From: Dictyostelium discoideum
Taxonomy: Eukaryota
Reading direction: 5' to 3'
NCBI GenBank assembly: GCA_000004695.1
Contig: CM000153.2
Location: forward strand, 832,001 to 896,000
Length of the DNA stretch: 64,000 nucleotides
Below, one piece after another: positions 5,650 to 11,600 of the stretch. How positions within the stretch are numbered: position 1 is the stretch's first letter; every line of letters begins with the position of its first letter. The translations under genes were made by a program, and so were the position numbers. Below the pieces are notes generated by a model. The model was not told the DNA's origin and ran no database searches. It saw only the letters and a list, made by a program, of their open reading frames with translations.

Positions 5650-8600
5650 TTATAATTTATAATATGAACGTTTTGTAACACGACCATCAGAACCACAAGA
5701 GAATAAACCATTATTTTCTAATCTAACTTGCATTACACCATAGGTTGAAACTGGAGATTTGAAAACACCTGTTGGACGAACAAAAGTTTGTTTTTTATGA
5801 GCATCTTCAAAGGTATTGAGACAAGTCATCGATGGTAAGGACCAAATCTTAATGTTACCATCACTACTACCAGAGCAAACAAACTCTTCGAATGGATCCA
5901 ATGCCAATGATTTAGTATTTAAATGATGAGCTTTGAAACTTTCCAATTGTTTATGAGTACGAATATCGTAGAGTGACAATGAACCTTTCTTACCACCAAC
6001 GATGATAGTTTGACGTTTTGGAGAATAAACAATTGAGGATGCGCCATTCTCTTGATCGGTGTAAGAGGCAATCAATGATTTATTAGGTGGCAATAATACA
6101 TCCCATAGACAGATATCACGAGATTTGCTATCACTACTACTGATACCGGCAGTTGCCAATAAACTTCCAGAATTTAAAAATGTGAAATCCAAACATTGCT
6201 TAGAATGAGCTTGAAGTGAATAGAATGGTTTCAAGGTATCTTCTTGAGCTGCGAATTGCCACAACAAGATATTACCCGCCATATCGCATGCACCAAATTT
6301 AGTGCCACTTTGATTGAATTTACATCTAACGATTCTTGGTTTTTGAGGGAGTTGATAGGCAGTCAATACCTCTGGTATACCAAATTGCCATAAACAAACC
6401 GAACCATCGATACCACCCGATAAATAGAATGAAGAGTTTGGATGACTTTCTAAACATTGTACAATTATATTATGATCCATTTGTCTACTTGATCTTAAAC
6501 CACTGAATACCGTACTAATCTTACCTTTGGAGATGTTTAAAGATGAAACTGATTTACCAGTGATACGTGGTCTTTTATTATCTCTACTTGAAGATGGTGA
6601 ACTAATTAAATTCTCTGATGGATCTATATCATGTTCTTCCCTAATTTCACTAACCAATTGTTTATGATCAATCTCTCTAATACCACGAGTGGTTGCAATT
6701 GCCATAACATTTAATTCTGGTGAAGTTGGATCCAAACAAAATGATTGTAATAAATCACTATCCTTATAAATTTCAATCTCTTCTTCAAATTTAATTTTAC
6801 CACTACCACCACCAAATTGAACTTGGCTACCAACTTTTTTCAATGGCATTGGTTCATTATTTTTATTTACCTTACTATTATTATTATTGTTATTACCACC
6901 ATTAATATCTACTGGTAAAGTAATTTCAATACCAAGTATAATATGATCTAATAATTCTTTTTGATTTGTAATTAAAATTTTCCAAATTTGATATTGATCA
7001 GTTGAATTAAATTCTTTATAAGATTTTAAAAGTTCTAAAAAGTTTTCAATTGTTGTTTTAGTTGTATTATTGGTGAATTGATCTAAAATCTTTTGTGGAA
7101 CATGTAAAAGTTTTGATTGTGATGAACCAATCCAAAGTGATAAACGTTGATTCACTGAATCGAATACTTGATGGTATGGCAATGCCTTTACTAATTGATC
7201 GAAGCATTGTTTAAAATATTTCAATGAAAGGAAATCAAAGAATCTTTTTAAGAATTTATATATTAATTTCTTTTCATCATTAATTCTCTTTAATTCTTCT
7301 TTATCTAATATTTCATTTGGATCGTCATCTTCATCATCCATATCAAAATCATCATCATCATCATTATTATTATCACCAGCACCAATTAATTCATTATTTT
7401 CAGTATCTTTATAAGATCTAATTGGTAATTGTTTAATTTGATCAATGAATTGATTAAATTGTTGGATAGTATTCTTATTTTTGAATAATACTAATAACAC
7501 ATCGAAACGTTGTGAACCATAACCTAATAAAAATAACATCATATAAACTGTTGATAAAATCAATGAATGACTATGATAACGTTTATCAATAGACATAATT
7601 GATTGATAAATCTCTAATGAAACTGTTAATAATGGTTGTGATGCTGATGAATTCATTAACATTAAAATATTATCATCATCAAATCTTAATAATGATTTAA
7701 TTATTGAAATTGAAATTAATTCTAATATATCCATTGCTTTTTCATCACCATCTTCATTATTATTACTATTATTATTATTATTATTATTATATTTAGTTAA
7801 TTGAATTACTTGATAAACATATTGTCTATTTGAACAATATTCAATTAATGATTTAACAATTTCTTTTGGAATTAACTTGATTCTTTTTACATAAATATTC
7901 TAATGATTCTTTAAAATCTTTAAATTCCTCATCCCAATTATCAGCTTCTCTAGTTTCCATAATGGTTTCAAGTAAAACTTTAACAACCAATTTATCTTTT
8001 AATTCATTATCAATCAATGAATATAATGAAAGTTTTTCTTTTTTACTTGGTATGAATGTTGCTGCTTACAATGATGCTTCTGCATGCTGATAATGCTGCT
8101 TTATCTTCTCTATCTTTATTTGATTTTTCTTCTTCAATCTCTTTAATTGATTCTTCTTTTGGATTTATTACTATCTAACAACTCCCACCTATTATTATTA
8201 TTATTATTGGTGGTGGTTGATGATGGTGCACCAAAGTCTAAACCATAATTATTTGAAGATGATGATTGACTTGGTGTATTGAAATCTAATCCCATATAAT
8301 TTGATGATGAATTTTCTGGTTTTGATGGTGTACTACCAAAGTCTAAACCATAATTATTTGAATTTGATGATGATGATTGAGTTGGTGTATTGAAATCTAG
8401 TCCCATATAAGATGAAGAAGTCGATGGTTTTGATGGTGTACTACCAAAATCTAATCCTAAATCATTTGAATTTGATTGAGTTGGTGTATTGAAATCTAGT
8501 CCCATATAAGATGATGAAGTTGGTTTTGATGGTGCACTACCAAAATCTAAACCTAAATCATTTGAAGGTTTACTAAAGAAACCACTACTACTACCGCCTC

Positions 8601-11600
8601 CACCACCAAAATCTAAACCCAAATCATATGACGGTTTATTAAAGAAACCACTACCACCGCCACCACCACCAAAATCTAAACCTAAATCATTTGATTTTTG
8701 TTTTTCTTTTTCTAATCTTTCTTTTTCTTTTTCTTTTTCTTGTTGTTGTTGTTTTAATTTTTCTAATTTTTCAACTTCTTGACGTTCTTGATTATCAGTT
8801 AAAATGGTTGGATGAGATGCTTCTAATCTTTCAATATTTTCAAGTGCTAATAATGAACAACCACTATTGAAATAAGAGTAAGAACTAGTTCTTAAGAATT
8901 CATCTTCTTTCTTTTTATCCTCTGATAATTGACGTAATTGAACATGATTCTTTAAGAAACGGAAGAAATATAAAATGGAAGGACCTAATTGAGAAGCACG
9001 TAATTGTTGAGAGATTGGTGATACCACTTGAGTGGTTAAGGTTGTACCTGTAGCATTTGAGTAATTTGTACCAGTGGTTGATCTATTAATTGGTGATGAT
9101 ACCATTGAATTACGACTAGACATACCAATTGGTGTTGAATTACCAGAAACACCTAAACTATAACCACCACCACCACCACCACGTTGATTGTTATCATCTT
9201 CATCAAGTTTTCTATCACCATCTATTGAAACTGATGGTATTAAACATGTTATAGCATCTTCATACTTTTTCAATAACCAATTACAAATACTTAATAAACT
9301 ACGATCATTAGTTTTCTTTGCAAGTGGTATGATATGATCTTCAATGATCATACGTGAACATTCGCCATTCTCACCTTCATACAATCTTGAGATAACCAAT
9401 GCCAATTGGAAATCACCTTGCATTTGTAATAAAAGATTTACAGCTTTCTTTAATTGACCTGCTAAAAGGAATAATGAAGCAGCCAATTCATATTTATGTT
9501 TACTTTGTAAAAGGAATGCACTTTTATTTGCAGCAGTGATCCATTTAGCTTGAGTGAAATCTTGTGAAAGGAATTCAACTTGTTTTATATCTTTTGAAGC
9601 TTTATGCAATGCAACCAACGCACCTTTTTTACCCAATGCTAAATAATACAATGAACATTCTCTTGGGTCTCTTCTTTGAATGTAGGTTGTCTTTGCCAAC
9701 TTTTCCACTACATTTATCAAGGTACTTGGCGATTTAATCCACAAACCAGCACCAATTTGTTTTAAAGCATCCCAATCTGGATCGGTTGGGAAACAAGTTG
9801 AAAGAATAGTTTCTTGTGCCTCTGAATGTAACGCCCAAAGAATATCGGTTGTACTCAATGAGATTGGACGATCTTGTGGTGGTAATGATCTACGTAAAAA
9901 TTGGAATACCTTTGCTGACAATATGAAACGTGAACCATTCTCATCGAGACCACCTCTCATTTCACCAATTTCACCATAGGTATCGGTAACTGCTAACAAT
10001 TGAATTTGTTCACTACTTGAAAGATTACCCAATTTAATTGATGATAAAATTTCACTTAATTTTCTTGCTTGTCTTTTTGTAAATTTATTTGAATTTTCTA
10101 ATTCATCCCTATCACTATCGTCGTCGTCGTCGTCGTCATCGTCATCATCTTTATTACGATCATTACGATCATTATGATTATTCTTATCAATTGAATTCAT
10201 TCTATCCATATCATCAGAAGTACCAGTTTTCTTTGATTTTGAATTTGTAAATTCATCGAAATGAATAATCTCTTCAATTGATAATGGTGGTATGAAAACT
10301 GGTGATTTTGGTAAATCATTTAAATCATCATATTTTTCGAAAAGGAATTGACAAACATGTTTTAAGATCTTTTCAACAACACCAAATTTACCAGCCATCA
10401 TGTATTCAGTTAAGAATTTTGGATGATACATTGGTAAAGGACGTTGAAGTTCAGAATGTTGATGATAAATTGAATTCAATTTGGTATTGTAATCATGACC
10501 AACCGTTTGAAATTGTGATAATGCTAAGTTGTCATTGATGTTGTTAAGTTTTGACCATTTTGTAAACACCATAATTTGATTACCAGCACTAACATACAAT
10601 GATAGATCTTTACCCCATTCTAAGCTACTACATGGCGAGGTTAAATCATCATAGTTATGAGTTTGAACCCATGGTCTCTTATAACTACCAATCACTCTAT
10701 CCACTGGTTTATTTAAGATTTTCACTTGGTTACCATACCCAAATGCAACTGAATAGCTACCATCATCTAAACTAACAAAACTAAAACAACAACTAATAAT
10801 ATCCTCATGTGCCAATGACGATGATGATGCCGCTAATGCCGTTCCGACACCAACATTGTTTGTACTGGCTTTCAATAAAATTGTAGTTGTAAGTGGCGGT
10901 GATTTAAATGCACCAATTCCTGAAGTTGGTGATGTTATTATAACTTGTGGTGTATTTAATGGTGTAGCAATTGCTGTTGTTGTTGTTGTTGTTGTTGTTG
11001 TTATTGCTTGTGGTATTTCACTATCTATATAAAATTTAATGGTATCTTCTAAACGTAACTTTGGTGTATGTGATTCTAATTCCCAAATATGAATTTCTGG
11101 ATTTGGATTAGTAGAGAATGCTTTTGATGCAAATCTACCAAAATAAGCTGCTTTAACTGATTCAACTGGTTGTTGATATGCATGATAACCACCCATTTCA
11201 CCAATTGTCCAATCTTCGAATTTGATCTCTTCTTCACTATCACCACCCTTTACAAATGATATTTTTGGTGTTATACCAAATACTGATACATAACCATCAA
11301 TACTACCAGTAATACAAATTGGATGTGTTAAAACTACTCTATCTTCATTATTGTACTTTTCATTATTATTATTATTATTATTATCGTCATTATTATCGTC
11401 ATCATCATTATCACTAAAATCTTCATTTTGATTTTTATTCATTTTATTAATAGTTGTCATATCGAAAATACCTTTTGGTGCAGCACAAATACAAGAAATT
11501 CTTGAATCCCTTTCAAATTCTTTTGTTGCTAATAATTTTGATTTTAAAATTGATGGAGAGGATGATGAAGAATATTTGAAATCCTTTTCAACACTAACAC

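Follow-up and report, generated by a model that had tools for sequence, protein, structure and literature searches.

A nine-copy GLDF array in a Dictyostelium Rav1/DmX-like protein is probably an amplified form of an old family motif

Arrays of short acidic–aromatic motifs in disordered protein segments are familiar from the endocytic proteins Eps15 (DPF), epsin (DPW) and AP180 (DLL/DLF), in which many copies of a 3–5-residue core, about 15–25 disordered residues apart, engage a folded hub domain through avidity. Related cases are the ligands of the gamma-adaptin ear and of the GGA GAE domain, which follow the pattern aromatic-G-[PDE]-hydrophobic or 'DFGx-hydrophobic', and the LFa repeats of the endosomal regulator FAM21, which are Leu/Phe/acidic motifs in the disordered tail of this WASH-complex protein. 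Here we describe an array of this general kind in 64,000 nucleotides of Dictyostelium discoideum DNA (assembly GCA_000004695.1, contig CM000153.2, positions 832,001 to 896,000; hereafter the window, whose own numbering is used throughout). The array lies in a minus-strand gene for a homologue of Rav1 and the DmX-like protein Rabconnectin-3-alpha. The structure of RAVE/Rabconnectin-3 and its V1 contacts were resolved only in 2024–2025; in the yeast and human homologues subunits A, D and C of V1 bind to the helical domain, and the segment past that domain has been described as disordered or unstructured, with no role assigned (PMC11648922, PMC12527914, PMC12246789). It is in the corresponding segment of the Dictyostelium protein that the array is found. 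We consider it probable that the array is a selected, multivalent platform of short linear motifs that descends from an ancient motif of Rav1/DMXL proteins and grew through slippage or unequal exchange.

At the DNA level, the array is a coding minisatellite at 8209–8691 on the minus strand, in which Tandem Repeats Finder detects periods of 99 and 66 bp: a first array at 8230–8566 (period 99, 3.3 copies, 83% matches, score 405) overlaps a second at 8535–8694 (period 66, 2.5 copies, 88% matches, score 255). The repeated core on the + strand, ACCAAAATCTAAACCTAAATCA, encodes N-D-L-G-L-D-F-G when reverse-complemented. The array falls in a minus-strand open reading frame (ORF) of 1266 codons at 8143–11943, which contains the Rav1p_C domain and exactly nine GLDF cores (codons at 8233–8682); a six-frame search of the 64-kb window turns up just one further GLDF, and the + strand across the array has no competing ORF. 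The original prediction, made from the letters of the window alone, had proposed a tandem GLDF(G/N) array of at least nine copies, with acidic–aromatic motifs set in Gly/Ser/Asn linkers, encoded by a minisatellite-like repeat with a super-period of about 100 bp and expanded inside a coding exon. Our analysis agrees on all of these points: the core that it quoted is present on the + strand, Thr and Pro join the linker residues, and the expansion has left marks of unit duplication in the repeat arrays, in the identities between units and in indel lengths.

The nine cores comprise four DLGLDFG, three YMGLDFNTP and two NYGLDFG, spaced 15–22 residues apart (ORF residues 1085–1245). Along the gene, the array begins with two units of 21–22 residues, (N/Y)DLGLDFG-G5-6-(S)GFFxKPS, at 8563–8691; these are 90% identical in DNA, differ by a single 3-nucleotide indel and have equivalents in D. 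purpureum. Three double units of 32–36 residues follow at 8254–8562, corresponding to the 99-bp period, each consisting of xxGLDFGS(A/T)PSKP...SS and then YMGLDFNTP(T/S)QS...; they share 87–94% DNA identity, with indels of only 3, 6 and 9 nucleotides. Every indel between units of the array is a multiple of 3. The terminal unit, NNYGLDFGAPSSTTT (8209–8253), is of all copies the nearest to the family consensus Phi-D-Ar-G-A-P-x-S, and a two-unit stretch of the array reads NDLGLDFGSTPSKPSTSSSYMGLDFNTPTQ. Within the core, the codons of all nine copies vary synonymously only (GGT/GGA, TTA/TTG/CTA, GAT/GAC and TTT/TTC).

To place the array in its family, we used ORF residues 580–1266 as the query of an exhaustive HMMER search, which returned 1466 homologues. 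The four closest, from D. purpureum, Heterostelium album, Synstelium polycarpum and one EukProt entry, carry 6–9 copies of (D/Y)(L/M)GLDFG in the same place. The comparison of copy number between species called for by the original prediction therefore finds the array present in these orthologues. Although the five dictyostelid proteins are only 59–74% identical overall, GLDF is identical in 40 of 40 copies across them, whereas the linkers drift: linkers from different species have a mean identity of 0.45, as against 0.58 for those within a species, with five near-identical GPSTTSTSSNSNTM linkers in D. purpureum and GAPTKSSSTYDM linkers in Synstelium. An invariant core, synonymous codon variation and drifting linkers together indicate that the GLDF core is under constraint.

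This pattern bears directly on whether the array might be a neutral low-complexity product of slippage, tolerated as a flexible spacer that separates two helical domains and playing no sequence-specific part. Simple repeats abound in Dictyostelium coding sequence, and the region behaves as such a spacer might, being disordered, built of tandem DNA repeats with 83–94% identity between units, and variable among dictyostelid species in unit structure and copy number. However, a neutral spacer would account poorly for a core that stays fixed while its linkers drift, for core codons that differ synonymously and never otherwise, or for a homologous motif that recurs at this offset in fungi and animals. 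We regard a neutral origin as improbable.

The homologous motif emerged from 75 representative homologues, which were anchored on the end of the alpha-solenoid and scanned with the regular expression [LIMVFY]D[WF][GS]. The expression matched 97 times in the 23,154 residues of the 350-residue stretches that follow the anchor in these proteins and 14 times in the 104,362 residues elsewhere, a 31-fold enrichment, with at least one copy in 29 of the 75. In 25 of 27 proteins the first copy lies 29–62 residues past the anchor, a range that includes the 45-residue offset between the solenoid and the first copy in the window. Outside the dictyostelids the consensus is (A/S/G)(S/G)(A/G)-Phi-D-W-(G/S)-(A/E)-P-(V/S/A)-S, which in distant homologues appears at the same position as G-(L/I)-D-W-G-(A/E)-P-(V/A)-S. 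Between one and nine copies of Phi-D-W-(G/S)-x-P-x-S are present in homologues from chytrids, Mortierella, Capsaspora, nematodes, a rotifer, a fish and mammals. Eight chytrids carry the motif, among them Quaeritorhiza (up to nine copies) and Blyttiomyces (seven); Mortierella has LDFDSFG three times, Archamoebae DDWDFG three times and Capsaspora a single DWDWSQP. The motifs of mammalian DMXL1/2 number three, each with a Trp. Among the mammalian proteins, a DMXL1 carries IDWSQS and FDWSQPS, and the motif peptide of mouse DMXL2 is ADWSAVTSSQFDWSQPMVTVDEEPLRLDWGDD; an antibody immunogen from mouse DMXL2 reads ADWSAV...FDWSQP...LDWGDD (PMC10297199).

The window array and the other post-solenoid motifs of Rav1/DMXL proteins, such as those of mouse DMXL2 and the GGLDWGAPVS repeats (five to nine copies) of chytrids, share protein family, position, disordered setting and the core G-(L/I)-D-aromatic-G-(A)-P-x-S, the Pro of which is less regular in the array. 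The array differs in having Phe for Trp, in its nine copies as against two or three in animals, and in the Asn that follows Phe in three units. Six of the nine units match the family core [LIMVFY]D[WF][GS], the other three reading LDFN. A Pro stands two residues after the Gly/Ser position in four units (LDFNTP three times and LDFGAP) and one residue later in three (LDFGS[AT]P), and two units have a run of Gly instead. We therefore interpret the array as a Trp-to-Phe, amplified dictyostelid form of an old Rav1/DMXL family motif, Phi-D-W-(G/S)-x-P-x-S. The original prediction had called the array lineage-specific and added in the dictyostelid lineage. That description does not hold for the core, which occupies the same position in chytrids, Capsaspora and animals, including mammalian DMXL1 and DMXL2; what is dictyostelid-specific is the Trp-to-Phe change together with the 6–9 copies.

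Searches of the literature for GLDFG- and LGLDF-type strings gave unrelated matches only, and those for DWGAP- and FDWSQP-type strings gave only the DMXL2 antibody epitope. The motif is not mentioned in the papers on V1 binding (PMC11648922, PMC12527914, PMC12246789) or in a 2021 review, and in the literature searched no function is assigned to the post-solenoid motif of Rav1/DMXL for any species. The family-wide motif and its conservation thus appear to be undescribed in that literature; multi-copy motif arrays in disordered tails are, as a class, already known.

Two further features of Rav1/DMXL tails were observed in the same set of homologues. Rav1-type fungal proteins of about 1200–1300 residues that lack the C-terminal WD40 part (P0093, P0131, P0134, P0138 and P0149) end in ...EEPDMSAFDFG(F/M)-COOH, and this C terminus is possibly a single-copy counterpart of the family motif; the disordered tail of Saccharomyces cerevisiae Rav1 (9COP) gave no alignment with the Dikarya C-terminal ...AFDFGF peptide. 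In animal DMXL tails, past the Phi-DWSxP copies, an LxL[DEK]W[DSG] element is followed by an acidic run (P0117, P0088, P0137, P0128, P0061, P0087, P0111 and P0144; examples are LELKWDSDNNEENED, LKLDWEEEEENEE and LKLDWSDNDDDDD). In form it is close to the W-acidic motif that kinesin light chain binds, and it shows a 14.6-fold enrichment in the tails; we found no paper linking DMXL to the W-acidic motif.

The spacing and character of the units raised the question of whether the array belongs to a known class of ligand. The original prediction had suggested that it could be a dictyostelid-specific, multivalent docking platform for clathrin-adaptor ears (AP-1, AP-2 or GGA) or for clathrin. The architecture is indeed similar to that of an endocytic accessory tail, with acidic–aromatic motifs 15–22 residues apart in a disordered region rich in Ser, Gly, Asn, Thr and Pro, and the D-F-G tripeptide is present in every G-type unit, six of the nine. 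The array was searched for adaptor-ear, clathrin, EH and W-acidic motifs. It contains no match to the AP-2 alpha/beta2 appendage ligands DP[FW], FxDxF and WxxF; none to the gamma-ear/GGA GAE consensus aromatic-G-[PDE]-hydrophobic or DFGx-hydrophobic; none to the clathrin box L-Phi-x-Phi-[DE], the W box or DLL/DLF; and none to NPF or the W-acidic motif. For the gamma-ear and GGA ligands, the hydrophobic residue expected two positions after Gly is missing in all units (DFGGG, DFGSA, DFGST and DFGAP). Unlike Eps15, epsin and AP180, whose consensus patterns are absent from the array, the host protein belongs by homology among V-ATPase assembly scaffolds and not among coat accessory proteins.

Across the family, in a scan that included the family motif (itself enriched about 27-fold), the tails are depleted of DP[FW] (0.5-fold) and of the clathrin box (0.6-fold), contain a single match to the gamma-ear pattern, and show only mild enrichment of NPF (2.8-fold) and FxDxF (5.3-fold, 12 matches). 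Some homologues nevertheless carry other acidic–aromatic arrays in the same tail, including RAADLFADE in four to seven copies, SLFDD in nine (P0129), GDWLSDL in four, ADNLFDDY in four and NPFGIDD in three (tail arrays of this kind were recorded in P0035, P0045, P0047, P0052, P0129, P0009, P0091, P0149 and P0071). The fungal NPFGIDD and RAADLFADE we take to be forms of the EH-domain motif and of the AP180-type clathrin motif, respectively, and they speak for a link to adaptors and clathrin. A loose pattern, [DE][FW] followed by a small or acidic residue, is 4.4-fold enriched in the family tails, although their overall Phe/Trp content is not enriched. The type of tail motif turns over among lineages, its acidic–aromatic character being retained. 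Given that canonical ear, clathrin-box, DLL/DLF and NPF matches are missing from the array and that the motif is not dictyostelid-specific, docking to adaptor ears or clathrin is an unlikely explanation of the array.

Two other classes were compared. The LFa repeats of FAM21 are comparable in that numerous Leu/Phe/acidic motifs are strung along an extended disordered tail, and the SLFDD array of P0129 occupies the same tail as the array described here; the order in our array is L-D-F-G and not L-F-acidic, and the match to PF15255 is sub-threshold (E=0.014, 16 bits; cut-off 28). In Pfam scans generally, the array gave only sub-threshold compositional matches. A reading of the three YMGL sequences as ATG8-interacting (LIR) motifs ([WFY]xx[LIV]) was rejected, as other dictyostelids mostly have YDMGL, in which the spacing is broken; a candidate LIR of DMXL1 is located elsewhere, near the C-terminal WD40 (PMC12246789).

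FG nucleoporins offer a different parallel. The array has a G-L-x-F-G-like core, nearly uncharged linkers rich in Gly, Ser, Asn and Thr, and aromatic residues at regular intervals, with FG occurring six times as a dipeptide and GFF twice, and it might be a cohesive, sticker-and-spacer region in which aromatics drive weak self-association or condensates with no defined pocket. In Capsaspora (P0017/P0165), eight SSNFG repeats follow DWDWSQP in the same linker (residues ~1865–1930), and the chytrid array gives a sub-threshold Pfam match to Nucleoporin_FG2 (E=0.0036, 16 bits, cut-off 32), both of which would fit such a region. The core, however, is always interrupted by an invariant Asp, so that the array has no GLFG, and the host is, by homology, a cytosolic protein that acts on the V-ATPase. 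Conservation of a 5–8-residue core including Asp, Gly and Pro suggests a specific pocket, and many lineages, mammals among them, have 1–3 copies, too few for multivalent cohesion. A purely cohesive role is in our view very improbable.

We examined the structural setting of the array in an AlphaFold2 single-chain model of ORF residues 642–1266, built from a 36-sequence alignment. The alpha-solenoid, which is the helical part of Rav1p_C and by homology the V1-binding helical bundle, is encoded at 8812–10017 on the minus strand and is predicted with high confidence (predicted local distance difference test (pLDDT) >90). Between it and the array lies a predicted helix rich in Lys, Glu and Gln (8698–8796, minus strand; ORF residues 1050–1082, helix H409-441 of the construct). 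The array itself has pLDDT values of 33–42 and no secondary structure. In the model of a chytrid homologue, four motifs occupy a region of about 130 residues (391–521) with pLDDT values of 26–36, within the linker that joins the solenoid to a second confident helical domain.

These features suggest how a selected platform could operate. Nine copies of x-(L/M/Y)-G-L-D-F-(G/N)-x-P/S/T would be displayed on a flexible Ser/Gly/Asn/Thr/Pro tether that begins 45 residues past the solenoid, the part that holds the V1 sector in the yeast and human homologues. The Leu and the aromatic residue of each unit may dock in a pocket of a folded partner, and several copies on one tether would confer avidity and reach. 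Slippage or unequal exchange would alter the copy number, while selection would keep the core.

As to the partner, our leading, if tentative, candidate is a component met during V-ATPase assembly, namely a cytosolic subunit of V1 or Vo, or Rav2/ROGDI. It leads because of the position of the array, because such components are the only known partners shared from fungi to mammals, and because the canonical coat motifs fail. A vesicle-coat or endocytic hub domain ranks below it and seems rather unlikely; it stays under consideration because the variety of the tails resembles that of endocytic accessory proteins. The remaining probability goes to any other partner. More broadly, Phi-D-[W/F]-(G/S)-x-P could be an unrecognized ligand motif of Rav1/DMXL, common to Amoebozoa, Fungi and Holozoa, that engages a conserved pocket controlling V-ATPase assembly, with a valency of up to nine tuned independently in dictyostelids and several chytrids. 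Possible modes would be capture of V1 or Vo, loading of subunit C, or action as a pseudo-ligand competing for the groove of the subunit-D tail. We put this forward as a possibility that is open to real doubt.

Several observations weigh against a selected platform with such a partner. Part of the identity within the array stems from recent duplication and is not independent conservation, and only 29 of the 75 representatives match the strict expression. The variety of DLF, LFDD, DWLSDL and NPF tails is poorly suited to a single partner as conserved as V1. AlphaFold2 confidence is not raised at the motifs in either of the two constructs, Dictyostelium or chytrid, so that neither model suggests docking in cis. 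Published screens of V1 subunits by AlphaFold3 place the contacts in the helical domain and not in this linker. Against these points stand the constraint on the core and its shared position across the family, and we continue to favour the selected platform as the probable explanation.

The identity of the host gene is clear from its domains. Pfam places Rav1p_C (PF12234), a domain made up of the second propeller half and the alpha-solenoid, at residues 390–1035 of the array ORF (window 8839–10776) with E=1.3e-99; yeast Rav1 (9COP) is the sole PDB match (E=9e-43), and among named relatives the D. purpureum protein comes closest, with 74% identity. The 1917-residue orthologue P0001 is colinear with window positions 14384–7549 by tblastn. 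We found no papers on the Dictyostelium DmX-like gene. The minus-strand orientation corrects the earlier description of the gene, which had rightly named it DmX-like. An N-terminal WD40 exon at 12333–14384, supported by Pfam WD40 matches and by tblastn with P0001, is followed by two introns with GT...AG borders and a GC content of 10%, one of 114 nucleotides (12223–12336) and one of 83 (12001–12083), so that the central exon begins at 12000. A C-terminal helical and WD40 part at 5650–7734, with WD40/beta-propeller Pfam matches, lies in the frame of ORF 8143–11943 and is colinear with P0001. All of these features are on the minus strand. With Rav1p_C and both N- and C-terminal WD40 propellers, the protein is, by sequence homology, a Rav1/DmX-like (Rabconnectin-3-alpha) homologue.

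The array had also been placed at the end of the central exon, and this was not confirmed: coding sequence colinear with orthologues runs to 7789 and beyond. The post-array continuation (7789–8174, minus strand), traced by three-frame translation, passes through segments 8046–8174, 7856–8065 and 7789–7872, with three +1 frame changes in about 300 bp (near 8164–8170, 8046–8065 and 7866–7875), after which the original frame is regained. Through all three frames it is colinear with P0001, P0002 and P0004, which include the D. purpureum and Heterostelium proteins. Introns were rejected as the cause of the frame changes, since orthologue residues are contiguous across each shift and the region has a GC content of 26%, whereas that of the real introns is 10%. 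The pattern suggests 1-nucleotide insertion errors in the record, beside a repeat that is hard to assemble, or else a very recent disruption of the gene.

These results also settle how the stop of the ORF at 8143, 66 nucleotides past the array, should be read. Taken by itself, the stop would allow the array to be non-coding, as an intronic or intergenic minisatellite. The stop arises, however, from the first 1-nucleotide frame change, and coding goes on past it. The array is judged coding because it is in frame within the 1266-codon Rav1p_C ORF, because its indels are multiples of 3, and because its GC content (34%) exceeds that of the introns of the gene (10%); it is also found in the predicted proteins of the four orthologues. 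That the array is non-coding is scarcely conceivable.

Elsewhere in the window, neighbouring ORFs at 16125–17687, 24410–26407, 44659–45453, 53727–55358 and 61273–62967 encode eIF2A, two ComC-type supersandwich proteins, a cation-efflux (ZnT-type) transporter and a Rad51-family protein, with no evident connection to the array.

V-ATPase assembly is reversible and has RAVE/Rabconnectin-3 as its catalyst, and the Dictyostelium array draws attention to a short motif that is conserved at one position in Rav1/DMXL proteins from chytrids to mammals. Should the motif prove to have no partner, the array would still be a well-documented case of repeat expansion under the constraint of a conserved core.

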